DNA of 64,000 bases from an uncultured Candidatus Binatia bacterium (GTDB taxonomy: Bacteria; Desulfobacterota; Binatia; UBA9968; JAJDTQ01). Below are positions 33,791 through 54,466 of this stretch, in pieces; the stretch's first letter is position 1; each line of letters begins with the position of its first letter. The DNA lies in assembly GCA_965215605.1 (NCBI GenBank), contig OZ244070.1:448001-512000 (forward strand), in the 5' to 3' direction. Below the pieces are notes generated by a model, which saw nothing but the letters and a program-made list of their open reading frames with translations, was not told where the DNA came from and ran no database searches. Made by a program: the position numbers and the translations under genes.

Positions 33791-34699
33791 GTGGAGAACT
33801 CTCTCCGCATGTTCAGAAATCCGTTCCTCGAAGAAGTCACTGTCAACAAGGACAAGCGCCAACAGCTCGACCACCTTCTGCGGGTGACGGCGCCCCACGA
33901 ACGCGTCATCCTCGGGGGGATCGGGCTGGTGGTGTTGGCGCTTGCGGCGTGGGCGCTGTTCGGCAGCGTCGTGCGCGCGGTGACCGTCGACGGCGTCTTG
34001 ATCGAGCCCGGCGCGCGGCACGACATCATCTCGACCGAGCCGGGATACCTGGCCGAATATCTCGTGGCTCCCGGAGACCGCGTCGAGGCCGGCGCGCCGA
34101 TCGCGCGACAGAGCGTGCCGGAGCTCGACCGTGAGACGGCGGCCCTTCGCGACCGGGTGGAACTGCTGGAACAGGGAACCCGGCAGGCCGGCGGAGACGG
34201 CGGCCCCTTGCGCACATTGCTGGCATCGGCCCGGGTGGCGTTGCTTCAGATGGAGGCGCAACGCTCGGCAAGGGAGTATGTCGTCAGTCAGATCGCCGGG
34301 CGGATCACCGCGCTGCGAGCCTCTCCCGGTGACTACCTGCCGGCGGGCGCGGCCGTGGCCCAGCTACGGGACGCGGGGGACCAGCCCCTCCAGGCGGTTC
34401 TACGCATTGCCTCACGCATGGCACAACGCATCCGGCCGGGCATGGAGGCCTCGGTCGACGTGGTGATGCCGGACGGCACGACGCGCCGGTGGGACGGGAG
34501 GGTGGCTTCCGTCACACCCGGCCCGCTGCCTCGCTGGCTGGCCCTGCTGCCGCCCGCGGCTCCGGACTCCTCGCATCGCGTCGACGTGGTCCTGACCCGG
34601 ACGTCGGAGTTGCCGTTGCCGGACGGCACCCCGTGCCGGGTGCGTATCGTCATAGGCCGCCACTCTCCGGCGGCGCTCTTCGACCTGGAAAGGTCCTGA
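33791..34699 (+). CDS. NHLP-system HlyD-family secretion adaptor
   Basis: FRNPFLE...QQLDHLLRVTAP N-terminus typical of NHLP secretion proteins, a TM helix, and biotinyl-lipoyl-like VAPGDRVEAG. Confidence 0.88.
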   Translation: MENSLRMFRNPFLEEVTVNKDKRQQLDHLLRVTAPHERVILGGIGLVVLALAAWALFGSVVRAVTVDGVLIEPGARHDIISTEPGYLAEYLVAPGDRVEAGAPIARQSVPELDRETAALRDRVELLEQGTRQAGGDGGPLRTLLASARVALLQMEAQRSAREYVVSQIAGRITALRASPGDYLPAGAAVAQLRDAGDQPLQAVLRIASRMAQRIRPGMEASVDVVMPDGTTRRWDGRVASVTPGPLPRWLALLPPAAPDSSHRVDVVLTRTSELPLPDGTPCRVRIVIGRHSPAALFDLERS

Positions 34700-36922
34700 A
34701 TGGCAGCCCCGGGCGGGAAAGAGTCGGCGGGTTCCGGGAGCAAGCCCGGTAACGAACCTGGGAAGGGGCGCATAACCACCCCGCTGCTGATGCAGACCCA
34801 CGCCACCGAATGCGGCGCGGCATGCCTCGGCAGCGTGCTGGCTTACTTCGGCCGTTGGGTTACTTTCACCGAGCTGCGCGGCAGGTGCGAGGTCAGCCGG
34901 GACGGCTCCACCGCCGCCGGCATCATGCGGGCCGCCCGGCACTATGGACTCGAGTGCACCGGCCGCAGCGCGCCGGCGCAGCAACTCAAGAAGCTGCCGC
35001 TCCCGCTGATCCTGTTCTGGGAGTACAACCACTTCCTCATTCTCGAAGGCTTCGACAGCGAGCGGGTCTACCTCAACGACCCGGCCACGGGCCGGCGCGT
35101 GCTCTCCGCCGAGGAATTCGCCGCAAGCTATTCGGGCGTCGCCCTGCAATTCAATGCCGGGCCGGACTTCCAGCCCGGCGGCACCCGGGCCAACCTCCTG
35201 CAAAGACTCCCCGCATGGCTGCACGACACACGGGGGGCGCTGGCCTATGCCGTGGCATGCGGCCTCTTGCTGGCCGTGCTGGCCCTGGTCACCCCGGCGG
35301 TCCTGGGCATATTCGTGGATCGGGTGCTCGGAGAGAACGAAGCCTGGGGGGGCCTGATGGCGGGAGCGTTGACCGCCGCGGCGGCCCTGGTCTATGGGCT
35401 TGCCTGGCTCAAGCAGCGGTGGCTTCAGCGCCTTTCCGTGCGCATCTCGGTGATCGCCGGCAATCGTTGCCTGTCGCGCCTGCTCCGGCTGCCGGTGGAG
35501 TACTTCAGCCACCGCATGGTGGGTGAGCTCACCGTCCGGCTCCTTTCCATCGACAGGATCGCCAAGAACCTGTCGGAACACTTTCTCGGGGTGCTCATCG
35601 AGATCGCCATGAGCGTGCTCTTCCTGGCCTTCATGCTGGCCTACGACGCCATGCTGGCATCCATCGTCCTGGGGCTGGCGGTGTTGAACGGGATCCTCGT
35701 ACGCGTGATCACTCGCCTCCGCACGGACCAAAGCCATGCCTTGCGGCGCGAGCAGGGATTGCTGATCGGCGTGGGCACGCTGATGTTGAACCAGGCAGAC
35801 CATTTGCGGATGACGGCGGAGGACGACGGGTTCTTTGCCCGCTGGAGCGGCCATCAGGCGCGTGAGCTGGGAGCGCGCCAGCGGTTCTCGGAGTTGAGCC
35901 ACGTCAACGCGGCCATGCCGGGACTGTTCATGATCCTGGGCCACGTGGCCGTGTTGACCATCGGCGCCGGCCAGGTCATCGCCGGCGATCTGACCCTGGG
36001 CGCGCTGGTGGCGTTCTACATCGTGGCGGGCATGTTCCTGGAGCCCGTGGGCCGCTTCGTCGAGTTTGCCGACCAGCGGCAGGCCCTCGAGACCGACATG
36101 CAGCGCCTGGACGACATCACCCAAACCCCCGAAGATCCGGGCTTGACCCGTGACGCCGCTGTTTCGGAGACCATCGCGACGTTCAACGGGCGGCTGCGCC
36201 TGGCGGGCCAGGTGGAGCTGCGCAACGTCACCTTCGGCTACAACCGCGGCCGTCCGCCGTTGATCAAGGACTTCAGCCTGACCATTCAGCCGGGACAGCG
36301 GGTGGCCGTGGTCGGTCCCAGCGGCTCCGGCAAATCGACGCTGTCGCGGCTGGTATCCGGCATCTATCAGCCCTGGTCGGGCGAGATCCTGTACGACGGC
36401 CGTCCGCGAAACGAGATCCCCCGCGAGGTCCTGTCGCGCTCCTTGTCGATGGTGGACCAGGACGTCGTCCTCTTTTCCGCCACCGTGCGCGAGAACGTCA
36501 CCCTGTGGAACCCCACCGTCCCGGACGAGGATATGGTGGCCGCGGCCCGGGACGCCTGCATCCATGACGAGATCCTCAACCGGCCGCTGGGCTACGGCAC
36601 TCCCGTCGAAGAAGACGGGAGCAACTTCAGCGGCGGCCAGCGACAGCGGCTGGAAATCGCCCGGGCGCTCGTGGGCAACCCCACGGTGCTGATCCTCGAC
36701 GAGGCCACCAGCGCTCTCGACGCCGCCACCGAAGAGAGCGTCGACGACGCGCTGCGGCGCCGGGGTTGCAGTTGCCTGATCGTCGCACACCGGCTGAGCA
36801 CGGTGCGGGACTGCGATCAGATCATCGTCCTCGAGAAGGGCGTGGAAGTGCAGCGCGGCACCCACGACGAGCTCATGGCTGACGAAACCGGACTGTACTA
36901 CCGGCTCGTCCGCGCGGGATAA
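34700..36922 (+). CDS. NHLP-family peptidase-containing ABC exporter (C39 + ABC)
   Basis: C39 triad QTHATECGAACL / WEYNHF / LNDPA; Walker A GPSGSGKST; FSGGQRQR; LDEATS. Confidence 0.95.
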   Translation: MAAPGGKESAGSGSKPGNEPGKGRITTPLLMQTHATECGAACLGSVLAYFGRWVTFTELRGRCEVSRDGSTAAGIMRAARHYGLECTGRSAPAQQLKKLPLPLILFWEYNHFLILEGFDSERVYLNDPATGRRVLSAEEFAASYSGVALQFNAGPDFQPGGTRANLLQRLPAWLHDTRGALAYAVACGLLLAVLALVTPAVLGIFVDRVLGENEAWGGLMAGALTAAAALVYGLAWLKQRWLQRLSVRISVIAGNRCLSRLLRLPVEYFSHRMVGELTVRLLSIDRIAKNLSEHFLGVLIEIAMSVLFLAFMLAYDAMLASIVLGLAVLNGILVRVITRLRTDQSHALRREQGLLIGVGTLMLNQADHLRMTAEDDGFFARWSGHQARELGARQRFSELSHVNAAMPGLFMILGHVAVLTIGAGQVIAGDLTLGALVAFYIVAGMFLEPVGRFVEFADQRQALETDMQRLDDITQTPEDPGLTRDAAVSETIATFNGRLRLAGQVELRNVTFGYNRGRPPLIKDFSLTIQPGQRVAVVGPSGSGKSTLSRLVSGIYQPWSGEILYDGRPRNEIPREVLSRSLSMVDQDVVLFSATVRENVTLWNPTVPDEDMVAAARDACIHDEILNRPLGYGTPVEEDGSNFSGGQRQRLEIARALVGNPTVLILDEATSALDAATEESVDDALRRRGCSCLIVAHRLSTVRDCDQIIVLEKGVEVQRGTHDELMADETGLYYRLVRAG

Positions 36923-36926
36923 CCCG

Positions 36927-39848
36927 ATGGAGACCTCGCAGTTTCACCCCCTGGCAGACCTGGCGGCCGAGTCGGGAACGGCCGTCCCCTGCGCCGGCAA
37001 CCTTCCGCTGGACATGGACGATCCCCGGTTCGTCTGGTTCATCGAGACGGGGGCGGTCGACCTTTTTCTGGTGGAACGCCGGGACGGGGTGGAGCAGTCC
37101 GCGCCACAGCACCTGTTGCGCGCCGATGCCGGGCGGTTGCTGCCCGGTGTGACCCCCGAGGCGGCGGACACCACCCTCGGCCTGATGGCGAAGGGGTTGC
37201 CGAATACGATTCTGCGGCGCCTCCCGATCACCAGCCTGGCGGCCATCCGCAGCACAGAGCTGGCGGCGCACGTCGACGCATGGCTCACGGACGTTTCCGC
37301 CATCCTGTCGCGGGACGTTCCGCACCTGCCCCGACCTGACGGGCTGGTGGAATCCGGACAGGCTCCGCAGGTCCTGAAGGGTACGCTTTCGTCGCGCCGG
37401 GGCGTGGCATGGGTATCGACCCCGCCGGACTCCGGGCTGTTCATGGACTTGATCGACCCGGCGGAGCGCGATGCGGAAGACCGCGCCGGGGCGGCCAGGA
37501 TACCCCTCACGCCGGCGAGTTGGCTCACGCTGACCGGGGAGCTGGAGCTTTACGCCCAATCCTCGGAAGCCCTGGCCGAAGAGGGCCTGCTGCTGCCGGC
37601 CCTGGCGAGGTTTCACGCCGTGGCGTTCTCGCTGGAACGACTCAACCGCGGTCTGGCGGTGGTGGATCAGGCGAATCTGGAGCGGGCACGGGCCGCCAAC
37701 CGCCGCACCGACGAGGAAGGCGCCCGCCGCCGGCTGTTCAACCTCTACGGCCTGCAGGAACCGGACGGCGCGGCGGCGGGCGATTCGGTGCTGCTCGAAG
37801 CCCTGCGGGCCGTCGGCGCCCACGAGGGAATCGACTTCAAATGGCCCGAACGGAACGAGGCCGCCGGGTCCGACGCCGTCATGCGCAAGGTCCTGGAAAC
37901 GTCGGGAGTACGTGGACGGCGGGTGCGGCTCGCCTCGCAGGACCGCTGGTGGGTTGGTGACAGCGGCGCCATGCTCGCTTTCCGCGCCGACGACGACCGG
38001 CCGGTGGCGTTGTTGCCGGGCGTGCTGGGGCCCTATCTCGAAGTGGATCCCGTCGACCGCCGCAGGACCCGGGTCACGCCTGAACGCGCGGCATCGCTCC
38101 GCGCCGACGCGTGGGCATTTCAGCAACCACTCGGGTCAGGCCAAGCCGGCCTGCGGGACCTCTTGCGCCTCGCCGTCAAGGGGTTGCCCCGCGACTTCGT
38201 GCGCTTCCTGCTGGCCGGGCTTCTGAGCGGCCTCGTCATGCTGCTGCCTGCCATCGTGGTGGGCATCATTGTCGACGAGGTGATTCCCGCCGGCGAGGCC
38301 GGCCTGTTGTATCTGGCCGGCGCGGCACTGGGAGCGTTCGCCCTGATCCGGGCGTTGCTGCACATTCTCCAGGGAATGGCGCTGATGCGCCTGGAAGGCC
38401 GTGTCGCCTCGCGAGTGGAGGCCGCGTTCTGGGACCGGCTGCTCCGGCTGCCGCCGGGCGTCCTCCATCGTTACCCCGCCGGGGACCTCGCCATACGGGG
38501 GATGACGTTCCAGCGACTCCGTGACGCCGTGCAAGGCGCGGTGGCCGACGGGGTTCTGTCTCTCCTCTTCCTGTCGCCCGCGTTCCTGCTCATATTCTTC
38601 TACGACGCCATGCTGGGCGTCGTGGCAGCCGCCTTCGGCCTCCTGTCACTGCTGGCGACGGTGGGACTCGGCCTGCGCCAGATACCACCGCAAGGCCGGG
38701 TAACCCGGACCGTCCAGGGGCTGGCCGGGCGGCTGTTCCAGCTCGTCAACGGCATTTCCAAGCTCCGCGTGGACGGCGCCGAAGGCTCCGCGTTTGCGGT
38801 CTGGGCGCGGGACTACCGCGAGCAGAAGCATGCGGAGCTGGAGGTGGCTCGGTTCGAAACCCATCTACGGGCGTTCGGTGCGGCCTTGCCTCTGCTGGCG
38901 GCGGCGGTGCTGTTGCTGGCCGCGACCTTGCCGGACGGGCGGACCATCACGGCGGGTGACTTCCTCGTCATCTACACCCTGTTCATGCTGTTCCAGACGG
39001 CGGTGGCCCGCCTGGGCATGTCGTTCAGCACCGTCGCCGCCATCGTGCCCGCCCTGGATCAGGTCCGGCCGTTCCTCGCCCAGGCGCCGGAGACGGGCGC
39101 CGACGGCGAACCGGTCGAGTCGCTGGGGGGCGACATCGCGTTCGACCACGTCTCCTTCCGGTACGGCCCGGACGGCCCGTTGATCCTCGACGACGTCTCC
39201 ATCCGAGCCCGCCCCGGCGAGTTCGTCGCCATCGCCGGCGAGTCGGGCGCGGGCAAGAGCACCCTCTTCCGGCTGGCGCTCGGTCTGGACCAGCCGTCCG
39301 GCGGCGCCCTGTACTACGACGGGCGCGACCTCAAGCACCTCAACCTCAAGCAGGTCCGCCGGCAGATCGGCGCGGTCCCGCAGCAGGTGCAGCTCCACCC
39401 ACAGGACCTCTGGGACAACATCGTCGGCGACGACGAAGAAGCCACCGTGGACGATGCCTGGGAGGCGGCCCGGCTCGCGGCCGTCGACCAGGAGATCGCG
39501 GCGATGCCCATGGGGATGATGACCAACGTGGGCGCAAGCACCAGCGTTACATCCGGGGGCGAGAGCCAACGCATCGTCATCGCCCACGCGCTGCTGCGCA
39601 ACCCGCGCATCCTGCTGCTGGACGAAGCGACCAACTGGCTCGACAACGACAACCAGTCCAGCATCATGGACAACCTCGCGGGCCTCACCTCCACGCGTAT
39701 CGTCATTGCCCACCGGCTTTCCACGCTGCGCCAAGCCGACCGCATCTACGTCATGCGCGCCGGGAAGGTAGTCCAGGAAGGCTCCTTCGCCGAGTTGACA
39801 GCAACCGAGGGCGTCTTCCGGGATCTAGTGCGACGGCAGATCGCGTAA
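36927..39848 (+). CDS. NHLP-system second ABC transporter (no peptidase; N-terminal cNMP-like domain)
   Basis: VWFIETGAVDLF N-terminus, TM domain, GESGAGKST, SGGESQR, LDEATN. Confidence 0.92.
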   Translation: METSQFHPLADLAAESGTAVPCAGNLPLDMDDPRFVWFIETGAVDLFLVERRDGVEQSAPQHLLRADAGRLLPGVTPEAADTTLGLMAKGLPNTILRRLPITSLAAIRSTELAAHVDAWLTDVSAILSRDVPHLPRPDGLVESGQAPQVLKGTLSSRRGVAWVSTPPDSGLFMDLIDPAERDAEDRAGAARIPLTPASWLTLTGELELYAQSSEALAEEGLLLPALARFHAVAFSLERLNRGLAVVDQANLERARAANRRTDEEGARRRLFNLYGLQEPDGAAAGDSVLLEALRAVGAHEGIDFKWPERNEAAGSDAVMRKVLETSGVRGRRVRLASQDRWWVGDSGAMLAFRADDDRPVALLPGVLGPYLEVDPVDRRRTRVTPERAASLRADAWAFQQPLGSGQAGLRDLLRLAVKGLPRDFVRFLLAGLLSGLVMLLPAIVVGIIVDEVIPAGEAGLLYLAGAALGAFALIRALLHILQGMALMRLEGRVASRVEAAFWDRLLRLPPGVLHRYPAGDLAIRGMTFQRLRDAVQGAVADGVLSLLFLSPAFLLIFFYDAMLGVVAAAFGLLSLLATVGLGLRQIPPQGRVTRTVQGLAGRLFQLVNGISKLRVDGAEGSAFAVWARDYREQKHAELEVARFETHLRAFGAALPLLAAAVLLLAATLPDGRTITAGDFLVIYTLFMLFQTAVARLGMSFSTVAAIVPALDQVRPFLAQAPETGADGEPVESLGGDIAFDHVSFRYGPDGPLILDDVSIRARPGEFVAIAGESGAGKSTLFRLALGLDQPSGGALYYDGRDLKHLNLKQVRRQIGAVPQQVQLHPQDLWDNIVGDDEEATVDDAWEAARLAAVDQEIAAMPMGMMTNVGASTSVTSGGESQRIVIAHALLRNPRILLLDEATNWLDNDNQSSIMDNLAGLTSTRIVIAHRLSTLRQADRIYVMRAGKVVQEGSFAELTATEGVFRDLVRRQIA

Positions 39849-39874
39849 GCCGAACGTAGAGATTTCACGAATCG

Positions 39875-39997
39875 CCAAAAATATCGCCGAACCAAAGCAT
39901 ATCAAAAAATGCCTAAATCATCTCCAAAATAAGATTGCACTGTGAGAGCAACAAGGGTATAATCTTTTAGTTACGATCGGTAAAAACAAGGAGGTGA
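39875..39997 (+). promoter_or_regulatory. Strong sigma70 promoter and RBS of the RiPP precursor
   Basis: A-tract-rich upstream region, TTGCAC (39935-40)-N17-TATAAT (39958-63), SD AAGGAGGTGA (39988-97). Confidence 0.85.
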
Positions 39998-40000
39998 CAT

Positions 40001-40264
40001 ATGCAGGCGTTTCAATCGGCAGAGGATATGCGCCGTCAGTTGACGGAGAAGGCGACGGAAGATCCCGCATTCCGGGCACAGCTCGTGGCGGATCCCAAGA
40101 GCGTCCTCTACCAGGAGTTCGGCGTGTCGGTTCCCGACAATATCGACATCCAGGTGCATGAGAGCGACATGCGCACCGTGCACCTGGCATTGCCGCCTAG
40201 CCCCGTGCTGGACGAGGAACAGCTCCAGGCGGTTTCCGCCGGTCTTTGCTGCTGCGGGATCTAG
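40001..40264 (+). CDS. NHLP/proteusin RiPP precursor; predicted core LCCCGI
   Basis: Nitrile-hydratase-like leader (KATEDPAFRAQLVADPK...HLALPP), double-Gly-type site LDEEQLQAVSAG, then LCCCGI and stop. Confidence 0.95.
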   Translation: MQAFQSAEDMRRQLTEKATEDPAFRAQLVADPKSVLYQEFGVSVPDNIDIQVHESDMRTVHLALPPSPVLDEEQLQAVSAGLCCCGI

Positions 40265-40273
40265 ACCAGGTTC

Positions 40274-40362
40274 ACCGCTCCCGGCAAGGGCTTGGAGCGG
40301 TCCGACGATAAAAGGGGACCCGCGGGCGCGACACCTCATCGCGTCAGCGGTCCCCGTTTCTT
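40274..40362 (+). terminator. Two hairpins downstream of the precursor (stabiliser or terminator)
   Basis: ACCGCTCC...GGAGCGGT (40274-40301) and GGGGACC...GGTCCCC followed by GTTTCTT (~40314-40362). Confidence 0.55.
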
Positions 40363-40478
40363 GACCGAGCCTCCATGGCACCATAACGCTTCCTGTTGGA
40401 TCGGGCGGAGATGGCGCATCCTCGGGATGAATGTCCGCTTGACACCTTCGAATCTCTCAACCAGGCCCAGCCCTCGCA

Positions 40479-42797: not shown

Positions 42798-42839
42798 CCT
42801 TCCGCGACGTTTGCGCGGCATCCATCGAGGACTCTACCT

Positions 42840-44168
42840 CTACTTCCTCTTTCCCGGCGGCGCCGGGCTTTCTCCGAATGGCATGCCTTCCCCCTGGAAC
42901 ACCTGCTTCGGATCGAACTCTCTCTTCCACCGGATGCCCGTTTCCAGCTTCTCTCCGAAGTGTTCCTTCCATTCCTCGCGCCCATAGCCCACGCGGCCCG
43001 ACAGATAGCTCTTTCCTCCGAGGCCGACGAGTGTCCGGGTGACCTCCTTCAGTCTTTCCGCCACCTCGCTGGCCCTTTCGTAGGCGCCCAGCACGGCCAG
43101 GATATGGTACGAGAACATGCGCCTCCCGCTCGGGTGCATGAAGAGCGGGGCGTCGATCGCCTCGGTATTGATCGGATAGATCCCGATCCAGCTTTCGGGT
43201 GCTGGCGGCACCCACTCCCGGTCCAGCCAAGGCTGGGCGAGCACCGTCGGAAGGGTTTCCCAGGGCATGAACCAATCGCGCCACGGGTAGTAGTGGCTCC
43301 GGCTGAACAGCCAGCCCAGATACATCCCGGCCCGTCCGACCTCGGCGGTGTCACGGATGCTGACAATCTCCTCGTACCCCAGCCCTTCGAGCACCGTTCC
43401 GTCATCGTGTTCCCGGTCGTACTCGACGCCGGCATCCATGATGATCTCGCTGTCGTGGAACCGGGTCTCCGCTCGCAGACGGCCGAACCGGCCCTCGTCG
43501 ACGGCCTGTTCGAAGTCACGCGCGAACCGGTCGAAATCGCGATAGCGGAGCTCGTACTGCCGAATCCGTTCTCCGGCCTTTCGAACGCGGATCCACGCGT
43601 CAGCAATGACGCCGAATTGTCCCTGGCCACCCCTCACCGCGTCGAAGAGGTCCGCGTTCCGGGTGCGTGAGCACCGTACTCGCTCGCCGGTTCCGGTCAC
43701 CACGTCGAGTTGCTCGACCTGTCCGATCTGCATCCCGTAACGGTGGGACGTGTTGCCCAGCCCTCCCGCGGACAAAGTTCCTCCGACGGTCACATCCAAC
43801 GTATCCACCAGCACCCGTGGCAGCCGTCCCGCCCCACGCAGCGCCTCCAACACCTTGCCCCACGGCGCTCCGCCTTGCGCCCGCACCAAGTCTCCCCCCA
43901 GGGGCCGGACTCGATCAAGGTACATCGTGTCGAGCACCAGGCCGCCGTCCGTGAGGCTCTGTCCGCCCTGAGAGTGTCCTCCTCCGCGGACGGCCAGTTG
44001 GACTCCGTCGCCGGCCGCCCCGCGGACGATGCTCGACAGCTCATCGACGCTCTTCGGTCGCGCCACCGCTCCGGGCATCTTCCTGATCATTCTTCCCCAG
44101 TCGTACGATCGAGCCTCCCGGTCTTCCCGGTCTTTGCTCACGCTCGATTCGACACCTTGTTCGACCAT
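42840..44168 (-). CDS. FAD-linked oxidoreductase (VAO/PCMH fold, cytokinin dehydrogenase-like)
   Basis: RGGGHSQGGQS (covalent-His motif), TVGGTLSAGG, LFDAVRGGQGQFGVI, HYYPW, KREFDP. Confidence 0.88.
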   Translation of the reverse strand: MVEQGVESSVSKDREDREARSYDWGRMIRKMPGAVARPKSVDELSSIVRGAAGDGVQLAVRGGGHSQGGQSLTDGGLVLDTMYLDRVRPLGGDLVRAQGGAPWGKVLEALRGAGRLPRVLVDTLDVTVGGTLSAGGLGNTSHRYGMQIGQVEQLDVVTGTGERVRCSRTRNADLFDAVRGGQGQFGVIADAWIRVRKAGERIRQYELRYRDFDRFARDFEQAVDEGRFGRLRAETRFHDSEIIMDAGVEYDREHDDGTVLEGLGYEEIVSIRDTAEVGRAGMYLGWLFSRSHYYPWRDWFMPWETLPTVLAQPWLDREWVPPAPESWIGIYPINTEAIDAPLFMHPSGRRMFSYHILAVLGAYERASEVAERLKEVTRTLVGLGGKSYLSGRVGYGREEWKEHFGEKLETGIRWKREFDPKQVFQGEGMPFGESPAPPGKRK

Positions 44169-44348
44169 TTCTCCTCCTCTCGGGGCACCGTTCCCCGCGG
44201 CAAGATCCTAGAGGCACGAAGCCGCTTCGTCAACGTGCTTCCCGGTTCCGGATCGCTCTTGCATTTCCGTCGGCGGCTACCTAGTCTTTCCCCCGACACG
44301 GGAGGCCACATCGTGGCCGGTATGCAGCAACGGGGGACCAGAGTGGAA

Positions 44349-45176
44349 ATGGAAACGTCTGTCGCCAAACACTACGCCGACTTGACCGAACGCATGGAGA
44401 AGTTCGGCGGGGATCTGCTGGCATGCCATTTCGGCCTTTGGGGACCGGACACGACCACCGATCAGGAAGGCCTGTTGCGCGCCAACCATACCCTGGTGCA
44501 GGGGTGCGATCTCGGCGCGGGACAGCGTGTGCTGGATGCCGGCTGCGGCGTGGGCGGCACCGCCATCATGCTGGCGGAGGCCTATGGCGCCCACGTCACC
44601 GGGCTGACGATCTGCGAGCCGCACGTCGCGGTGGCGGCACAACACGCCGAACGGCGCGGCGTCGGCCATCTGGTGGATTTCCGCCACGGGGACTTCATGG
44701 AGCTGCCGTTCCCTGACGCCAGTTTCGATGCGGTCTTGAATCACGAGTCGTTCTGCTACGCGGACGACAAGCTCGCCTACCTCCGGGGGGTCCACCGGGT
44801 GCTCAAGCCGGGAGGCCGCTGGCAGGCCCTCGAAGGACTGCTGAGCGGCGCGCCGATGTCCGAAGCGCAGGAAGCGCTTCACGCAACCGCACAGCGGGGC
44901 TGGCGCATGCCGCCACTCGAGCCGTGGCGCGACGTTCTCGCGGCTCTCGAGGAAGCGGGTTTCGCGCAGATACGGGAGCAGGACCTCTCCGCCGAGGCGA
45001 TGCGGTCCACGGAAAGAATCCGCCAGGGCTGGCTGTTGCTGACTTTCCTGAATCCCCGCGCCGGCGGGCTGAATCGGGCCTCCCAGGAGTTCATGGAAGC
45101 GACCGTCGGCTACGATCAGGGACTGCAGGAAGGGGTGTTCACCTACCACTTCCTGTCCGGCGCGAAGCCTGCGTAG
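44349..45176 (+). CDS. Class I SAM-dependent methyltransferase (sterol/tocopherol/RebM-like)
   Basis: HFGLW, VLDAGCGVGG, LPFPDASFDAV, RVLKPGG. Start trimmed from the ORF track entry 43710-45176. Confidence 0.9.
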   Translation: METSVAKHYADLTERMEKFGGDLLACHFGLWGPDTTTDQEGLLRANHTLVQGCDLGAGQRVLDAGCGVGGTAIMLAEAYGAHVTGLTICEPHVAVAAQHAERRGVGHLVDFRHGDFMELPFPDASFDAVLNHESFCYADDKLAYLRGVHRVLKPGGRWQALEGLLSGAPMSEAQEALHATAQRGWRMPPLEPWRDVLAALEEAGFAQIREQDLSAEAMRSTERIRQGWLLLTFLNPRAGGLNRASQEFMEATVGYDQGLQEGVFTYHFLSGAKPA

Positions 45177-45188
45177 AGGCCGGTCGAC

Positions 45189-46064
45189 TCAGCCGGGTTT
45201 TTCCGCACAGTATCGCCTGAGCTCGAAACTTCCGTTGCTCCAGGCTTCGTACAGCGTTTGGAACTGGTCGATCAACGCGCGGGTCCCGGGCGTTTCGACG
45301 CCGGCAAACCGTAGCGTTGCAAGCAGATTGTAGGCATTCCCGACCAGCCGCATGTTGTCCGCGTCTTTCCCGCCGAAATCCTCGAACTCCAGGACTTCCA
45401 GGCCCGCTTCGCGCAACTTCCCGGAGTAGGTGGACTGGCTCTCCAGACCCTGCACGGCGAACGGCTCGCACAACGGCACGATGTACTTGTCGTACGCCTC
45501 GGCCGCCAGACCGTCCCGCGCCATCCAGTCCATGGCCACGATCCTTCCCGACGGCTTCAGGATCCGGCTGGCTTCCTGAAGGAACCGCCCTCGGTCGTGG
45601 TAGTGGCATGCGCTCTCGATGTTCACCACCACGTCCACCGAAGCGTCGGCGAAAGGCAGGCTCAGCGAGCAATCGGCAAACTCGAAGCGGACTCGATCGT
45701 CCACACCGGCATCGCGTGCCTTGCCGGCGGCCATCTCCAATTGCATCCGGTTCAGATTGACGCCGGTGACCGTGCATCCCCGCGTTCTTGCAAGGTGGAT
45801 GGCGGTTCCGCCCACCCCGCACCCCGCGTCCACCACATGATGGCGTTCCTCGATGCCGGCCGGCGCGACGATGACCTCCACCATGCGCTCCACGGCGCGC
45901 GCGAGTCCCGCGGACTCCGAGAGTTCCTCGCCGGGCCGGGGACATTCTCCCGGCTCGAAGAGTCCGAAGTGGATATGGTCGCGATTCCACCCCCTGAGGT
46001 AGATGCCCGGCGTATTGTCGTCGTAGTAGCGTTCGGCGGCTTTCTTCTCGTCAGAGGCGGACAT
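45189..46064 (-). CDS. Class I SAM-dependent methyltransferase (second copy)
   Basis: HIHFGLF, VVDAGCGVGG, LPFADASVDVV, ESACHY, RILKPSG. Confidence 0.9.
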   Translation of the reverse strand: MSASDEKKAAERYYDDNTPGIYLRGWNRDHIHFGLFEPGECPRPGEELSESAGLARAVERMVEVIVAPAGIEERHHVVDAGCGVGGTAIHLARTRGCTVTGVNLNRMQLEMAAGKARDAGVDDRVRFEFADCSLSLPFADASVDVVVNIESACHYHDRGRFLQEASRILKPSGRIVAMDWMARDGLAAEAYDKYIVPLCEPFAVQGLESQSTYSGKLREAGLEVLEFEDFGGKDADNMRLVGNAYNLLATLRFAGVETPGTRALIDQFQTLYEAWSNGSFELRRYCAEKPG

Positions 46065-46083
46065 TTCGCGGACGGACCTCCCC

Positions 46084-47211
46084 TCAGGAAGACGGCGGCG
46101 TCAGCAACGCCATGAAAGGATACCCCTTGACCTGCTCGATCCGGTCCCCGGCCAGCACGAGCTTGATGTGGTGAACGCCGCGCAGGAGCACGAACGGCCC
46201 CAACACGCCGAACAGCGTGGTCGGACCCGGTGCCCACTTGGCCAGCGCCGACAGCTTTTCCGGAACCGCAAGGCTTTCCTCGCGCAAGCCATCGATGAAA
46301 GCGGTCCAGAGATCGGGCCGGTCCAGCCAATGACGCGGATCTTTCGCCCTCCTCTCCTTGGCGAGGTAACTCAGTCCCAGCGTCGGACCGACCCCGCCCG
46401 CATCCACGTCCAAATGGACCCCCATCTCGACGAACCCCCCTCGCTCCGCAAGGCGCGCCAGGGTTGCGGCGGCGACCGGACTCTGTCCGGGCCAGCCGAC
46501 GCGTTCCAGGAACGCCATGACGGCGCGTGAGTTCCGAAATCCTGTCACCGCAAGACGGATTGCCCTTTCGCGCGATGGAAATACGCCGATGGATTCGATC
46601 TGCGTATCCCCTTCCTGGGCCAGGTGCACCCGTTCGACCTGCCGGCGCTCAGCGGCGTCCGGGGTCCACCCGGCGGCGGAAACCAACGCGTCGAGCACAA
46701 CGTCCACGTCCCGTATCCGCTGGCCCGCGCCGTCCCCCACGATGGGCCGTTCGGCAGGGCGCAGGAATATCCCCGGATCCGGGCGCGAGCCGCCGAGTGC
46801 CGAGCCGACGTCGTACTCAAGCATCATCTTGCGGCCGACGACCTCGCGCAAGGGGGATTCCTCGGAGTCCGTCTCGGACAAGAACAGCGCGATTCCGGCC
46901 GCGGACGAATCCGTGCTTCCCGACCGCGCCTTTTGCTGGAAGACCGCGGCCGCCCCCGTCCCGCCCACCAAAGAGACGCCGAGATCCGCTCTCGGCCTGC
47001 GCTCGTTCAACGGCAGTTCGAAACCGAAGGGGAAGGCGGCCATGGTGGACGGCAACTCGCGCGCGACTCCGAGCAGACCCTCCCATTCCGCTTCGCCGAT
47101 CAAGGCAGGGGGAATCAGGTTCCTGAGGCCCTCCAGCAGCCCTCCCATGGAGTCCGCCTCGGCGGCGAGGCGCTCCTGGGTGACTGCCAGCGCTTCCTCA
47201 AAGGTCGCCAT
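46084..47211 (-). CDS. Uncharacterised RiPP-cluster protein (possible ABBA prenyltransferase-like fold)
   Basis: 375-aa soluble ORF starting 7 bp after the YcaO stop. FGFEL...ADLG, MLEYDV, IRLAV, HLDV, HHIKL...KGY strands. The fold assignment is inference only. Confidence 0.7.
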   Translation of the reverse strand: MATFEEALAVTQERLAAEADSMGGLLEGLRNLIPPALIGEAEWEGLLGVARELPSTMAAFPFGFELPLNERRPRADLGVSLVGGTGAAAVFQQKARSGSTDSSAAGIALFLSETDSEESPLREVVGRKMMLEYDVGSALGGSRPDPGIFLRPAERPIVGDGAGQRIRDVDVVLDALVSAAGWTPDAAERRQVERVHLAQEGDTQIESIGVFPSRERAIRLAVTGFRNSRAVMAFLERVGWPGQSPVAAATLARLAERGGFVEMGVHLDVDAGGVGPTLGLSYLAKERRAKDPRHWLDRPDLWTAFIDGLREESLAVPEKLSALAKWAPGPTTLFGVLGPFVLLRGVHHIKLVLAGDRIEQVKGYPFMALLTPPSS

Positions 47212-47217
47212 GGCGGT

Positions 47218-49614
47218 TCACGCGATGACCGGGACTGGGTTGAGATCCGTCTCCGCAAGGGGAGCTTCGCGCCGTCCCATCGCCACCGGCACGTCGAACA
47301 GGCGCCCCGGCGCAAAACGTTCCCAGAAGTGGCGGAGTCCCGGCACGATCACCCTGGCCACCGGCATGCCGATGTCGGGCCGGGTCTGATCGAGCACCAG
47401 GAACTCCATGCCCCTGGCTTCCACCAGCGCGCGGCATCGCTCCACGTCCTCCCTCACGTCCGCCGTGTCAAGACCGGGGTCCGGCCTCCCGCGCGGCGCG
47501 GCGCCGCGGTCGGGGGCCAGATAGGGGTGATCCGCCAGCTTCGCGTTCTTCCACCACCAAAGGCACATGGGATCGTCGACACCGTACCGGGAGCCGCCGC
47601 TCCCCGGACGGGGTACCCAGGTCAGGCATTGATTCAGTTCGCACACCGCGCGCAAGGCCGCGATGTGGGGGTCGGCGTGCGCCCCGGCGCCGTAGATGAT
47701 GTCCTCCACTTCGGCGTCGGTGCGGCGCGAGAGCGCGACGAAGGCCGGGATGCCGAGATCGCCGGTGACGTCCAGCACCCACACGTCGCGGTGAAGGCCC
47801 CGGTAGTAGTCGCGCGCGGAAGCCAGGTATTCGTCGCCGAAGCTCTCGATGTCCACCGCGGGCACGCGCAGCCGGTTGTACCACCAGATCGCGAAGGCAT
47901 CGCGCTCCACCAGCTCGAAGAATCCCTGAAGGATGGCTTCCTCAAGGGTGTTGCCGGCGGCACAACCGTTCGAATCAGCCCAAAAGCCGGAACTCCCACG
48001 CTGCTCCGGGGCCATGCCGTAGAGCATGGAGGTCGGCAGATACCGATGCCGGTCCTGGGTGAGCGACCACACCGGCGACCACTCCATGGGCTGGTCAGGG
48101 TCAAGGCGCGCGGGAACGATATTGTAGGGGTGTTCGCGCTCGTTGATTTCGTCCGCTTGATCCAGTTGCCGATCGCTGAAGAGCTGGACATCGTTCGGGT
48201 GGATCGCTTCCGGCGCGCCGTCCGCCGCGAAATCCGAAAAACGCCGGCGACGCCGAATCTCGTCCCCATGGAACGCGCCGGAATAGCGCTCGATGGCTTC
48301 GCAGAGCGCACTCGCCTCGGACTGCCTCGCCGTGCTCCCCTTGCCCGCGCTCTTGCTTCGCAGACTGCGCTTCAACGAGCTCAGGCTCCTGATTCTCAGC
48401 GCCAGATTGCTGCCGGCCCAATGGACGTGCAGCCAGGGATCGGTCTCCTCCGTGGTGCGCGTGACCCACGTCACGATCCCGCTGACCGGACTGATCAGAT
48501 GACGGTATCGGGCGAGGGTCTCCCGCGGCGGCACCGAACGCAGGCCGCCGCTGTTGCGCACCCTCTTCGGGCTCGGTTGCAGCCGCACCGGAACCGCCGG
48601 CCGGTCGGCGCGATTCAACGTGCTGTCGCCGCAGGCCGGGCACTGCGGACGGCGCATGACCGGATGGTGCTCGCTCTTCAGACTGGCAACGTCCAGTGAA
48701 ACCGCCTGCTCGTGGATTGGCGCGCTGCCCCCGAAGACCAGCCACTTGGCGACTTCCGCCGCCACCATGCCGTGGACGGCATCCACCACCGCCGGTTCGA
48801 CCGCGCAGGGAAGCACAGCCGCATCGTCCCCGCCAAGGTTCCGCAGGAAAGTGTGCACTTCGTGGTGGCCGCGCAGGCGATGGGTGAGACAGGCCCAGCA
48901 CGGCCCCTGTTCCGCGGGCCGGAAGACCGGGCCGAACAGGGGCTGGACGCCCCGTGGCCTGACCAGCATCCACGGCGCGCCGGACTCGAGGTGGCGCCGA
49001 TTGCGGTCCGCATGCCGTTCGTCGAGATAGTCGGCGCAGACGACAACCGAGAGCGTCGGCCGGTCCGCCTCCACGGCCACGCCCAGGTCTCCCAACCGGC
49101 GGGCGAAGCGGCCGTCATCGCCGGCCACCTCGATCCTCGACGCCCCCAGCCGCTCCTCGGCCCACCGGGGAGAAGCGCCCAGAGCGGACCAAAAGGCCGC
49201 CGAACCCGGTTCCATGGCGTGCCCGCCCGAGACCACGTATCCCCTGGACGCCAGGGCAATCAGCGCCGCTTGGACGTCGGATGCCGAATACCCCTCCGCA
49301 AGGCCCGCGACAATGTCGTCTTGCGTGCGGCGGCCGTCGAGAAGCGGCAGAAGATCGAGATAGATCGGCCCGCGGAGCAGCGTGTCGAAGGTTTCGGAGA
49401 CCAGCAGCACTTGTTGGTCGTCGATGGGGCGAAACTGAAGATGCGGCGTCAGCACCGGCGCCTCGATGAGGCCGCGGTCGGCGGGAACGGTCTTCGTCAA
49501 TATCCCCCGTGGCGGGGAGGTGGGCGGAGACGCCTCCCCGTCCGTGGGCCTTCCCGAGCCTTCCACTCCCGGAACCGGCGACGCTCCGGGGTTCTGTCCG
49601 GTGTCCCGCCTCAA
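47218..49614 (-). CDS. Fused cyclodehydratase (RRE + E1-like + YcaO; TOMM type)
   Basis: RRE-like LLPLLDGRRT, GPVFRP..GPCWACL, RRPQCPACG, SAGKG, EAIERYS, SNGCAAGNTLEEAILQGFFELVERDA, Pro-rich C-terminus LNPVPVIA. TTG start overlaps the upstream TGA. Confidence 0.95.
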   Translation of the reverse strand: MRRDTGQNPGASPVPGVEGSGRPTDGEASPPTSPPRGILTKTVPADRGLIEAPVLTPHLQFRPIDDQQVLLVSETFDTLLRGPIYLDLLPLLDGRRTQDDIVAGLAEGYSASDVQAALIALASRGYVVSGGHAMEPGSAAFWSALGASPRWAEERLGASRIEVAGDDGRFARRLGDLGVAVEADRPTLSVVVCADYLDERHADRNRRHLESGAPWMLVRPRGVQPLFGPVFRPAEQGPCWACLTHRLRGHHEVHTFLRNLGGDDAAVLPCAVEPAVVDAVHGMVAAEVAKWLVFGGSAPIHEQAVSLDVASLKSEHHPVMRRPQCPACGDSTLNRADRPAVPVRLQPSPKRVRNSGGLRSVPPRETLARYRHLISPVSGIVTWVTRTTEETDPWLHVHWAGSNLALRIRSLSSLKRSLRSKSAGKGSTARQSEASALCEAIERYSGAFHGDEIRRRRRFSDFAADGAPEAIHPNDVQLFSDRQLDQADEINEREHPYNIVPARLDPDQPMEWSPVWSLTQDRHRYLPTSMLYGMAPEQRGSSGFWADSNGCAAGNTLEEAILQGFFELVERDAFAIWWYNRLRVPAVDIESFGDEYLASARDYYRGLHRDVWVLDVTGDLGIPAFVALSRRTDAEVEDIIYGAGAHADPHIAALRAVCELNQCLTWVPRPGSGGSRYGVDDPMCLWWWKNAKLADHPYLAPDRGAAPRGRPDPGLDTADVREDVERCRALVEARGMEFLVLDQTRPDIGMPVARVIVPGLRHFWERFAPGRLFDVPVAMGRREAPLAETDLNPVPVIA

Positions 49615-51995
49615 AGCAGCGCGTCGATGTCGGCCGCGGCGCGGGACGCCGTTGCGGGAATCACCGCGGTCAGGACCTCGAAGTCATCCGCCCCGGAGCC
49701 ACGCGCGATCACGGCCTTGGCCTTGGCGCCCGCGGTCTCCAGCGTGAAACCCTCGTCCGCCACCAGCCGCACCATGCCTCGCAGGCTTCGCCACGTGTCC
49801 GCGGCCTCGGCCAGCCGCTCGGCCGCGTCGCCGGGAATCCACCCGCGCTCGCCCGCGGTCCGGAAAACGGAACCGGCGTCGGGGGCCGACAACTCCGGTG
49901 CCTCGTCCAGGTGGGTCAGTTGCAACAGCCGGGCGGCGTGCTCCACGTCCCGGGCGCCGCCGCGCATGCCGTCGATGGCGAGCAGGCCGGGCTCGGCCGA
50001 ACCGCCGGCCCCGTGTTGCAACTCGGCCATGAGCGGGGCACGCGCGCCGGCGTGGGCCAGGACCTCGCGCCGCGCCTCGTCGAAGCGGCCATCGATGCCG
50101 GAATCCCCGGCAGCGTATACGCACCGCGCTCGAGTCAGTTCCAGAAGCTCCCCGGCTGCGTGGCCTTCGATGAACTCCGCAAGAGAACGGACGGGTCGGC
50201 GCGCGGCTCCGGGCGGGACCGGCGCCAGCAACAGGTTGTCCTCGGACAGCTCCCGAAGCACGTCGAGGAACCGTCGGCCCATGGCTTTGTGGTGGCCGGC
50301 ATCGCCGTCGTAAACAAGCATGAGGTCGAGGTCCGCCCCGGGCGCCGTGTCCCGGCTGGCCAGATCGCCCAGCAACAGCGCCGCCATGCCTCCTTCGGCG
50401 CCCCGGCCGGCGAACTCCTCCTCGACGACCGACAACACCGTGACGATGGAGGTCTCCGCGACATTGGACAGAGCGACCCCCGCCTCCGCCGGCGACAGGT
50501 TGCCGCGCAGGGTGTGTATGCCGACCTGGAACACCTTGTCGTTCGACCAGTTCCGCACCGTTTCCACCGCCTCGGCCGTACCCAGAAAGGGCAGCTCCGC
50601 GATCTGTTCCAACATTTCCGCGACGCCGAGCTCCCGAGTCCAGTACAGGCGCGAGAGGCCGCGGCGGGCTATGGCCTCGGACTCCGTATCCGTCCCGAAA
50701 CCCCGCGGGAGGTCGAGATCGGTGAACTCCCTGCTGTCGAGGACGTCGAGCAGTTCCGGCGAACGGTTGATCCACTTCGCCAGGCGCGGCGCGGCGCCCA
50801 TGATCTCGGCAATGGTCTCGAACGATTCCGGACGCGCCGCCGCCGCCGGGCTGTCGTAGGCGCTCCAGTCCTCGATTTCGGGATAGAAGTGCGCGCGCCA
50901 TTGGTCCACCAGCGGGTCCATGGTCTCGAACCAGCGCCGGGGAAACAGCGCCATGCCGCCCATCTGCATGTAGCTGCCGGGCAGTTGCGGCGCCTCGTCC
51001 TCGCCGCAGTGCTGCAACAGCGGGTAGCGGCGGGTGGGGGCGATGTGGTGGTCGGGATGACGCTGCATGTTGTAGAAGAACAGGTTGCTGAGCTTGTAGG
51101 CGGCGCTCCAGGAATGGCACGCCCGCACCTTTTCGTACCGGCCGTTGGGCATGCGGATGCGCCGCAGGCCGTAGTGCTGGACGTAGTTGATGATCTTCAT
51201 CGAGAAGACCACGCCCGCGCAGATGACGGCGTAGGTCAGCACCACCCACAACCCGCCCACCCAGTACGCGAACGCGTACCACACGGCGGTCTCGAGGGCG
51301 TAGCGCCAGAACGGATTGGTGTAATGCCACACCGGCAGGTGGCGGCGCGCAAGCCGGTCGCGCTCGAAGCGCCAGGCCGCCAGGATGTTGTTCCTGACCT
51401 CGCCGGGCAGGTACTGCCAGAAGCTCACGCCCTTGGGCGGTGAGCCGGGGTCCCCGGGCGTGCAGACCAGTGCGTGGTGGATATAGATGTGCTCGGTCGC
51501 ATAGGTGGGATAGGAAACGCACGCCAGGAGGAACTCGCCGAGCCGGCGCTCCGGCGCCGCGCGTGAATGGATCAGCTCGTGGCCGACGATGAAACAGGGC
51601 TGCGCCACCATGCCCAGCACGAACGCCATGGCCACGACTTCCCAGGTGGACAAATGGCCCACCACCAGCACCTGCCAGAGCGAGAACACGAGCGTCCCCA
51701 CCCAGAGCACCGCCCACAGCCACACCGCCAGCTTGTACAGCAACAACTGCCGGTCCAGGGTCCTGGCCGGGTCCATGTTCCGCTCTTCGGTGCCGAACCG
51801 GGTATCGAGCCAGTCCGGGAGCTGGAAGAAGACCAGCGGAGCCAGGATCCACCAGCCTCCCTGGACCGCGGCGTTGATCACCAGCGGGAAGATGGCCAGG
51901 TTCATGGAGTACAGGAGGGCGTTCCGAACCGACGGCTCAAGCATCTCCCGCGCTCCGCCCCCGACCCCGCCGGGCTGCGCCATATCCTTTGCCAT
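49611..51995 (-). CDS. AlkB-like membrane diiron enzyme fused to a degenerate GlnE-like nucleotidyltransferase domain
   Basis: His boxes GHELIH, EHIYIHH, NYVQHYGL, QRHPDHH. C-terminal half has LSNVAE...LLGDLASRDTAPGADLDLMLVYD...GGARDVEHAARLLQL. Start uncertain (51995, 51983 or 51944). Confidence 0.8.
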   Translation of the reverse strand: MAKDMAQPGGVGGGAREMLEPSVRNALLYSMNLAIFPLVINAAVQGGWWILAPLVFFQLPDWLDTRFGTEERNMDPARTLDRQLLLYKLAVWLWAVLWVGTLVFSLWQVLVVGHLSTWEVVAMAFVLGMVAQPCFIVGHELIHSRAAPERRLGEFLLACVSYPTYATEHIYIHHALVCTPGDPGSPPKGVSFWQYLPGEVRNNILAAWRFERDRLARRHLPVWHYTNPFWRYALETAVWYAFAYWVGGLWVVLTYAVICAGVVFSMKIINYVQHYGLRRIRMPNGRYEKVRACHSWSAAYKLSNLFFYNMQRHPDHHIAPTRRYPLLQHCGEDEAPQLPGSYMQMGGMALFPRRWFETMDPLVDQWRAHFYPEIEDWSAYDSPAAAARPESFETIAEIMGAAPRLAKWINRSPELLDVLDSREFTDLDLPRGFGTDTESEAIARRGLSRLYWTRELGVAEMLEQIAELPFLGTAEAVETVRNWSNDKVFQVGIHTLRGNLSPAEAGVALSNVAETSIVTVLSVVEEEFAGRGAEGGMAALLLGDLASRDTAPGADLDLMLVYDGDAGHHKAMGRRFLDVLRELSEDNLLLAPVPPGAARRPVRSLAEFIEGHAAGELLELTRARCVYAAGDSGIDGRFDEARREVLAHAGARAPLMAELQHGAGGSAEPGLLAIDGMRGGARDVEHAARLLQLTHLDEAPELSAPDAGSVFRTAGERGWIPGDAAERLAEAADTWRSLRGMVRLVADEGFTLETAGAKAKAVIARGSGADDFEVLTAVIPATASRAAADIDALL

Positions 51996-52046
51996 GTCAG
52001 TTCCCGTATCTGCCAACGGCCATGAAATCGAAGGGTTACAGTGTCT

Positions 52047-52074
52047 ATTGTCCACGGGTCGGAAGCCCTGTCAA
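52047..52074 (-). promoter_or_regulatory. Putative promoter of the tailoring-enzyme operon
   Basis: TTGACA (52074-52069)-N16-GACAAT (52052-52047). It overlaps the ORF-track GTG start, so the true start is probably downstream. Confidence 0.5.
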
Positions 52075-54378: not shown

Positions 54379-54466
54379 CCGCCGCCGGCACAACGTCGGC
54401 AAGAATCGGCCGGCAGCCTGCCGGACCCTGTTGCGCACGGTCCGCCGGGCCGATATCTTCAACCTT

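Follow-up and report, generated by a model that had tools for sequence, protein, structure and literature searches.

The window analyzed here is a stretch of 64,000 nucleotides (nt) from the genome of an uncultured Candidatus Binatia bacterium (GenBank assembly GCA_965215605.1, contig OZ244070.1, positions 448,001 to 512,000 of the forward strand). A contiguous run of eleven genes, delimited by the listing of open reading frames (ORFs) and by family scans, occupies positions 33791-52055 of this window. It is probably an intact biosynthetic gene cluster for a ribosomally made peptide with post-translational modifications (RiPP) of the srp or 'LCCC' proteusin superfamily, built from a common chassis and an exchangeable tail and tailoring module. 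The features of the cluster are collected in Table 1; every gene has family-level support, with the sole exception of a 375-residue protein. A preliminary description of this DNA had outlined a contiguous NHLP/proteusin cluster between ordinary flanking genes, with a three-gene NHLM exporter and a fused, azoline-type YcaO enzyme. All of the genes that it listed were found, and the scores for TIGR03793, TIGR03796, TIGR03882 and TIGR03604 lie above the respective cut-offs. Its start coordinate also held, but the cluster stops at ~52055 and not at 52074. Both methyltransferases that it named exist, as Methyltransf_11 was detected in each, but the second one is placed here on the + strand (~44322-45176).

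Table 1. Genes and RNA features of the RiPP cluster (positions and strands refer to the window)
Feature	Position	Strand	Supporting matches
HlyD-type membrane-fusion adaptor of NHLM export, short, 302 residues	33791..34699	+	Pfam HlyD_3 5.3e-9, HlyD_D23
C39-peptidase/permease/ATPase exporter, NHLM ABC1	34700..36922	+	TIGR03796 881 bits (cut-off 853); Peptidase_C39 7.5e-31
Second ABC permease/ATPase, NHLM ABC2, 973 residues	36927..39848	+	TIGR03797 684 bits over residues 288-972
NHLP-leader precursor, 87 residues	40001..40264	+	TIGR03793 69.5 bits (cut-off 50.9)
Two strong hairpins, terminator- or attenuator-like, weak U tract	40268..40365	+	just 3' of the precursor stop codon
MMPL/HAE3-type resistance-nodulation-division (RND) transporter, 772 residues	40479..42797	+	Pfam MMPL 7e-28, Sterol-sensing; TIGR00921 8e-47, below cut-off
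VAO-family flavin adenine dinucleotide (FAD) oxidase, cytokinin-dehydrogenase-like, 442 residues	42840..44168	-	FAD_binding_4 7.2e-28; Cytokin-bind 26.6 bits (cut-off 23)
Class-I S-adenosylmethionine (SAM) methyltransferase MT2, ~284 residues	44322..45176 (start ATG inferred)	+	Methyltransf_11 5.7e-24 on ORF 43710-45176
Class-I SAM methyltransferase MT291	45189..46064	-	Methyltransf_11 4.8e-21
375-residue protein, large unannotated family	46084..47211	-	no Pfam or NCBIfam match
Fused winged-helix/E1-like/YcaO cyclodehydratase, the winged helix resembling a RiPP recognition element (RRE), 798 residues	47218..49614	-	PF02624 1e-97; DUF4423_like winged helix-turn-helix, residues 56-127
AlkB-type membrane di-iron oxygenase fused to GlnE-like nucleotidyltransferase fold, 814 residues	49611..52055	-	FA_desaturase 1.1e-27; GlnE 4.5e-7; GlnD_UR_UTase

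The precursor ends in ...LQAVSAGLCCCGI before its stop codon; its leader terminates in ...VLDEEQLQAVSAG and is followed by the core LCCCGI. A double-glycine-type cleavage site with a short core after it was predicted from the sequence between SAG and LCCCGI. Among 59 aligned precursor homologues, Gly81, Cys84 and Cys85 were invariant, and Ala80, Leu82 and Cys83 were conserved in at least 90%. The score of the leader domain, the cleavage site with its short core and the adjoining three-gene NHLM exporter together place this peptide among the NHLP-leader (proteusin) precursors. Because its core is not the LCCCW of the SrpE type, the peptide falls outside the srp group when this group is defined strictly by its core. 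The elements of the wider srp/LCCC superfamily, i.e., an NHLP precursor with an xCCC core, a fused YcaO, the 375-residue protein, an AlkB/GlnE fusion and NHLM exporters, are all present in the window. Upstream of the precursor gene, a strong ribosome-binding site (AAGGAGG, 7 nt 5' of the ATG) was read from the sequence, and a TATAAT box was recognized by eye at ~39952-39957. A sigma-70 scan around the precursor gave no + strand site that passed the scan criteria. The region 40262-40375, which covers the hairpins, folded with -55.7 kcal/mol (z = -3.8), and none of 200 shuffled sequences was as stable.

The exporter protein ABC1 keeps the Q..ECG cysteine motif and the NHF histidine motif in its N-terminus, as read from the sequence. 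The C39 peptidase domain of the NHLP exporter family cuts after double-glycine-type sites, and ABC1 is the predicted leader-cleaving exporter of the cluster. ABC2 carries an N-terminal extension of ~290 residues without family assignment.

The YcaO protein scored above the cut-offs of TIGR03882 (146 bits, cut-off 36.9) and of the SagD-type azoline family TIGR03604 (272 bits, cut-off 219). Its YcaO domain is fused to E1-like and RRE domains, as in the azol(in)e-forming systems of the thiazole/oxazole-modified microcin (TOMM) or linear azol(in)e-containing peptide (LAP) type, and its C-terminus reads ...NPVPVIA. It is 63-72% identical to the YcaO proteins of loci with an LCCCW core. For that core, carried by SrpE, it was published that the YcaO enzyme SrpC turns the three Cys residues into thiazolines and that SrpI brominates the C-terminal Trp (PMC10858898, PMC10286304). 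The formation of thioamides or amidines instead of azolines is very unlikely for the enzyme of the window, even though thioamide-forming members exist in the YcaO superfamily and TIGR03266 appeared as a secondary match (1.3e-39, below cut-off). The fused E1-like/RRE architecture, the two family scores above cut-off, the Cys-rich core and the thiazolines made by SrpC on LCCCW all argue for azolines, and no TfuA family was found among the Pfam matches of the cluster proteins.

To place the cluster among its relatives, we compared precursors and loci. The search for precursor homologues gave 218 candidates, 217 of which were confirmed. Among the 120 precursor homologues listed, GI is the most frequent tail rather than the W tail that has been studied: the core was LCCCGI in 65, LCCCL in 12, LCCCGV and LCCCG in 5 each, and LCCCGL, MCCCGI, LCCCI and LCCCW in 4 each, with 17 others. 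In the species-genome collection, 329 relatives of the YcaO protein were confirmed. The best 80 of these are 64-88% identical to it and come from Binatia, Nitrospirota, Alpha- and Gammaproteobacteria, Acidobacteriota, Gemmatimonadota, Actinomycetota and others; the names of several metagenome-assembled genomes (MAGs) among the hosts point to sponge symbionts. The 80 loci were searched over 10 kb on either side of the YcaO gene by tblastn with the window proteins and with families from other loci.

This comparison revealed two layers, a near-universal chassis (YcaO, the 375-residue protein, the AlkB/GlnE fusion, the exporters and often MMPL) and an exchangeable module of tail and tailoring genes. 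The 375-residue protein and the AlkB/GlnE fusion were each found in 68 of the 80 loci, ABC1 and ABC2 each in 52 and MMPL in 43, with the LCCCW loci included; these and the following locus counts are lower bounds, as some loci end at contig ends and 21 of the 80 had no precursor by the search pattern. HlyD homologues of ~300 residues were present in 25 loci. The arrangement of the chassis genes is also conserved. Of the 68 loci with the 375-residue protein, 56 have its gene immediately downstream of YcaO on the same strand; of the 68 with the fusion, 50 have the fusion gene immediately upstream of YcaO.

The FAD oxidase and the two methyltransferases are the only genes that go with the G[ILV] tail, whereas a Trp halogenase and a 435-residue cyclase-like protein go with the W tail. 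In the LCCCG[ILVF] loci (n = 10), the FAD oxidase was found in six, MT2 in eight and MT291 in seven, with all three jointly present in six; the cyclase-like protein was found in one and the halogenase in none. MMPL was present in all ten. In the LCCCW loci (n = 16), the FAD oxidase, MT2 and MT291 were not found at all, while the halogenase was present in 7 and the cyclase-like protein in 14. Other tails have modules of their own. Four of the five LCCC[LV] loci have the FAD oxidase and four have an MT2-like gene, and none has MT291. The ten RCCC loci (including L006, L007, L008, L011 and L013) hold a flavin amine oxidase in seven cases and an MpaB/Lcp-like oxygenase in four, and a second paralogue of the 375-residue protein occurs in all ten. 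The cyclase-like protein, examined at L004:13491-14798 (-), has an N-terminus resembling an NHLP leader (TIGR03793, 48 bits, just below cut-off) and a C-terminus with a weak squalene-hopene-cyclase match (2.5e-5, below cut-off).

The tail types do not form separate branches on the YcaO tree (FastTree, 81 sequences). The LCCCG[ILVF] label changes 7 times on this tree, with at least 6 changes forced by well-supported branches. The LCCCW label changes 8 times, with at least 5 changes forced, and interleaves with LCCCG[ILVF]. Therefore, tail-plus-tailoring modules appear to have been swapped rather than passed down within one branch. This speaks against the claim of the preliminary description that the cluster represents a distinct evolutionary branch, the whole gene set of which (MMPL, FAD oxidase, methyltransferases, unknown protein and AlkB/GlnE fusion) would be a new combination specific to LCCCGI. 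Such a branch could explain why the FAD oxidase and both methyltransferases are missing from all 16 LCCCW loci and common in the G[ILV] loci. It would also agree with the result of our literature search, in which no paper with LCCCGI in a peptide context was found, although the founding srp paper and its supplements, which possibly list a GI variant, lay outside this search. However, the AlkB fusion, the 375-residue protein and MMPL occur with all core types at the frequencies given above, and the LCCC family is already in print, since an 'LCCC' motif conserved in proteusin clusters was described in 2025 in a survey of MAGs from sponges (PMC11832590). Together with the forced label changes, this makes a distinct branch improbable.

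The other claims of the preliminary description fared better. The GI tail in place of W and the lack of a halogenase in the cluster were confirmed, the comparison with srp was apt, and the co-variation of tailoring genes with the core tail, which had been suggested as a check, was indeed found. The 'unusual tailoring set' was right for the tail-specific FAD oxidase and methyltransferases but not for the AlkB/GlnE fusion, the 375-residue protein and MMPL, which are widespread. The combination was not recognized there as described, which agrees with the literature search on LCCCGI; the LCCC motif family itself is published. The cluster is an uncharacterized module variant of a known and widely distributed superfamily; it is neither a separate lineage nor a categorically new system.

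Related genomes also bear on the swapping of modules. In the genus of the window, the YcaO gene was found in 12 of 24 other species genomes (63-88% identity), and in none of 16 genomes that belong to different families of the order. The closest relative (L001), a Binatia MAG with the core LCCCGL, is 87-95% identical to the window across the cluster and its flanks. Another Binatia MAG (L011) has the same downstream flank genes, 91% identical at the protein level, but carries an RCCC cluster next to them, and the genes common to both clusters are only 55-77% identical. This drop in identity supports the borders of the cluster. In a further locus (L076), an LCCCW cluster lies on the opposite side of the same upstream gene pair. 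The cluster of the window is flanked upstream by an ornithine cyclodeaminase-family gene and a major facilitator superfamily transporter gene, and downstream by genes for a chlorite-dismutase-family protein, a sigma-54 activator and M16 peptidases. The two genes closest to the cluster on the downstream side behave as conserved flank genes. No signatures of mobile elements were seen at the borders, where there were no tRNAs nearby, no flanking repeats and no Rfam match in 30000-56000.

The loci of the two closest relatives contain broken genes. At L001:13545-16086, only a truncated match to the FAD oxidase was seen and MT291 is in two pieces, and at L002:7540-9998, the AlkB fusion is in two frames. 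These breaks may reflect real decay or frameshift errors of the assembly. If they were real, they would fit a view of the cluster as a decaying, non-functional remnant. For the window, this is highly improbable, because its eleven genes are all full-length open frames that align end to end with their homologues.

The two conserved chassis proteins without an assigned role were characterized further. In the fusion protein, the AlkB domain extends over ~residues 60-385 and the GlnE-like domain over ~480-770. The solved AlkB structure 8f6t matched residues 71-385 with 1.3e-52. The AlkB domain contains the motifs HELIH, EHIYIHH, NYVQHYG and QRHPDHH, the histidines of which were invariant in 32 of 32 aligned homologues. 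The GlnE-like domain retains its fold signature; the catalytic acidic pair is not conserved in the family. Position 575 (Asp575 in the window) was Glu in 14, Ala in 9, Asp in 3 and Gly in 2 of the 32 homologues, and position 577 (Asp577 in the window) was Asp in 17, Glu in 5, Arg in 5 and Cys in 2. Therefore, the nucleotidyltransferase motif (G-x-x-S ... D-x-D) appears dispensable in this family, and a docking or regulatory role of the domain seems more plausible than nucleotidyl transfer.

The 375-residue protein gave no match in a sequence search of the PDB, and no Pfam family was found in 45 close and 57 remote members of its own family. The family is large, with 1763 representative relatives at E<=1e-3. 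Among 90%-identity clusters, 788 relatives were found, which are unnamed wherever the source gives a name. A search with a protein language model pointed to Trp_DMAT and PTase_Orf2 (scores 0.88-0.90), and we treat prenylation or lipid linkage of the product as a lead only. A homologue that is ~32-33% identical (tblastn) was found between two NHLP precursors on a metagenome contig (L109:414-9331; also L108, L110 and L111). The cores of these precursors, NGLISSWARA and FGAFWG, contain Trp and are free of Cys. The same cluster also holds NHLM exporters and a VAO-type FAD oxidase (24% identical to that of the window over 402 residues, E 2e-20), with no match to YcaO, AlkB, methyltransferase or MMPL. 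As this homologue lies between NHLP precursors in a YcaO-free cluster, the 375-residue proteins appear to be an NHLP-associated maturase family in their own right.

An alternative role for these proteins lies outside the peptide. The AlkB/GlnE fusion, the 375-residue protein and MMPL could act on a membrane lipid by remodeling or exporting it, e.g., for self-protection or as a carrier, and the peptide would then be only a tri-thiazoline trimmed by the enzymes of the module. The substrates of AlkB and MMPL family members are hydrophobic small molecules and lipids. In some loci, MMPL is found together with LolA-like and DUF1302 genes, and our literature search found no link between AlkB and RiPPs. 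This alternative is nevertheless unlikely, because the operon linkage is tight, with an overlap of 4 nt between the fusion gene and the YcaO gene, and the adjacency of both chassis genes to YcaO is kept across phyla. Moreover, a member of the 375-residue family is flanked by NHLP precursors in a cluster where YcaO, AlkB and MMPL gave no match.

Among the module enzymes, the FAD oxidase has both of its Pfam domains above the cut-offs, a GGGHS motif was read in its sequence, and no signal peptide was evident by eye. Its closest solved relatives are plant cytokinin dehydrogenases (4.5e-41), for which the FAD domain alone was matched. MT2 and MT291 are 31% identical over 240 residues. The nearest solved structures of MT2 are the small-molecule N/O-methyltransferases MitM, RebM-like and AtmM. 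For MT291, MitM was matched with 1.5e-27 among the solved structures, and the best NCBIfam match was the sarcosine/dimethylglycine N-methyltransferase family (1.2e-24, below cut-off). An ORF at 44277-45149 (-) was rejected as a gene, since it is an antisense shadow of MT2 and has no family matches.

From these observations, the following pathway can be proposed. Transcription of the 87-residue precursor would start from an AT-rich upstream region of its own. The fused E1-like/YcaO enzyme would then cyclodehydrate the three contiguous Cys residues to thiazolines, with a predicted mass change of -54 Da, as suggested by its homology to the YcaO proteins of the LCCCW loci and by the published activity of SrpC. 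The FAD oxidase and the two methyltransferases, which co-vary with the tail, may act on or near Gly-Ile, e.g., by N- or O-methylation and by oxidation of a C-N bond or an alcohol. For the chassis proteins, operon linkage points to possible roles. The AlkB domain may oxidize the peptide or an attached lipid group, with the degenerate GlnE-like domain perhaps serving as a docking module and not as a catalyst. The 375-residue protein may be an NHLP-dependent maturase, possibly a prenyltransferase, whose target would be the peptide's invariant part or a group attached to it, and MMPL may move a hydrophobic product. The C39-ABC, ABC and HlyD proteins would form the dedicated NHLP exporter, which would cut the leader between SAG and L during export and release a product of hexapeptide size. 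We infer that this product is a methylated, oxidized tri-thiazol(in)e hexapeptide. A more far-reaching proposal, possible but doubtful, is that the chassis employs chemistry not yet known from RiPPs to produce a lipidated azoline peptide. The 375-residue protein would then found a family (~1,760 relatives) of leader-dependent, NHLP-specific transferases, possibly prenyltransferases. The AlkB enzyme would dock to the precursor via its GlnE-like domain and would be the first membrane di-iron oxygenase or desaturase to act on a ribosomal peptide, e.g., by replacing an azoline dehydrogenase or by hydroxylating the lipid. In the G[ILV] and related modules, the FAD oxidase would act on an N-alkyl or prenyl linkage.

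A number of observations weigh against the assignment of the cluster or against parts of the proposed pathway. Two of the three exporter proteins score below the cut-offs of the families that match them best, HlyD with 92 bits for TIGR03794 (cut-off 156) and ABC2 slightly so for TIGR03797 (cut-off 709). The rule that tailoring genes follow the tail has exceptions among the LCCCG[ILVF] loci, as all three tailoring genes are missing from L071, L053 contains an MT2-like gene only, and L004 (LCCCGF) has the cyclase-like gene in their place. The related genomes behind the locus counts are not independent, and the YcaO tree was built without bootstrap. The final product of srp itself is not known; the published papers on it speak of the thiazoline peptide as the 'likely physiological substrate'. 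A SagB-type azoline dehydrogenase (TIGR03605) is not in the cluster, the only match in the genome being ~250 kb away (G000:C1:194624-195874). Thiazole formation is uncertain for this reason, and the rings may stay thiazolines unless the role of the dehydrogenase falls to another oxidase, either the FAD oxidase or the AlkB domain. Rubredoxin is the usual electron donor of AlkB. It was not detected (PF00301) in this genome, which is 97% complete, while the control search was positive in 7 of 14 genomes. As for prenylation, the core LCCCGI lacks an aromatic acceptor residue, and four profile-profile comparisons (hhalign) of the 375-residue family with PTase_Orf2 and Trp_DMAT gave probabilities of 0.2-0.7%.

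Further observations concern the surroundings of the cluster. A complete rRNA operon (16S, tRNA-Ile, tRNA-Ala, 23S and 5S) lies at 8531-13897 (-), ~20 kb upstream of the cluster, and accounts for the low-GC stretch of the window. Two neighboring M16 (insulinase-type) peptidase genes were found at 54368-57120 (+), 2.3 kb past the end of the cluster. The Trp_halogenase matches of the genome are all outside the window and none belongs to the cluster. A second proteusin system is present in the same genome outside the window (G000:C1:235643-245779 and G000:C6:420-2757; loci L082-L084 and L087-L090). Two of its NHLP precursors have the Cys-free, Trp-terminal cores IGDIHTW and IGDINTW, each preceded by GG, and adjoin Trp-halogenase genes; a third NHLP match was also detected.

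According to published work, few secondary-metabolite clusters of sponge symbionts are as widespread and as highly transcribed as the srp/LCCC clusters, and srp-type precursor genes in particular were reported to be transcribed at very high levels (bioRxiv 10.1101/2023.06.09.544420); the final product and function of these clusters are not known. The division into chassis and module indicates which genes should be co-expressed, namely, YcaO with the 375-residue protein and the AlkB fusion for the shared steps, and the FAD oxidase with MT2 and MT291 for the G[ILV] module. The most valuable outcome of this analysis is this chassis-and-module structure, along with the 375-residue and AlkB/GlnE families, two large and conserved enzyme families that are hereby flagged without assigned chemistry.

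The enzymes of the cluster can be compared with several known systems. The domain order RRE, E1-like and YcaO is shared with the azoline-forming fused YcaO proteins of the TOMM/LAP and cyanobactin types and with MprC of a methanotroph proteusin cluster. The window differs from these systems in that it has no partner azoline dehydrogenase in the role of MprD or SagB. The fusion protein has all four His motifs of the AlkB alkane 1-monooxygenase, including NYxxHYG, and thus the eight-histidine di-iron set. Unlike that enzyme, it is fused to a GlnE-like domain with an unconserved acidic pair and is encoded in a RiPP operon of a genome without detected rubredoxin. With the plant and bacterial cytokinin dehydrogenases of the VAO family, the FAD oxidase shares the FAD_binding_4 and Cytokin-bind domains and the GHS motif, but its gene sits in a RiPP operon, and its matches to solved structures span the FAD domain only.

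Leader-dependent RiPP prenyltransferases have been published (MppC), and NctPC, in which an ABBA-fold prenyltransferase is joined to a terpene cyclase, acts on Trp (PMC12715784, PMC13290415). The 375-residue family, which always accompanies long structured leaders, is a possible parallel to these enzymes. The pairing in NctPC is echoed in the LCCCW loci, where the 375-residue protein occurs together with the cyclase-like protein and a core Trp. In contrast to MppC and NctPC, the 375-residue protein shows no detectable resemblance to PTase_Orf2 or Trp_DMAT, in sequence or in profile, and LCCCGI offers no aromatic acceptor.

The closest known counterparts are the srp clusters (SrpE, SrpC and SrpI). 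The precursor of the window shares with them an L(X)4L-type motif (LDEEQL) and the LCCC start of the core, and the LCCCW (srp-type) loci have the same exporters, 375-residue protein and AlkB/GlnE fusion, along with YcaO proteins of the identity given above. The core of the window, however, ends in GI and not in W, and in place of the halogenase and the 435-residue cyclase-like gene, the cluster carries the FAD oxidase and the two methyltransferases.

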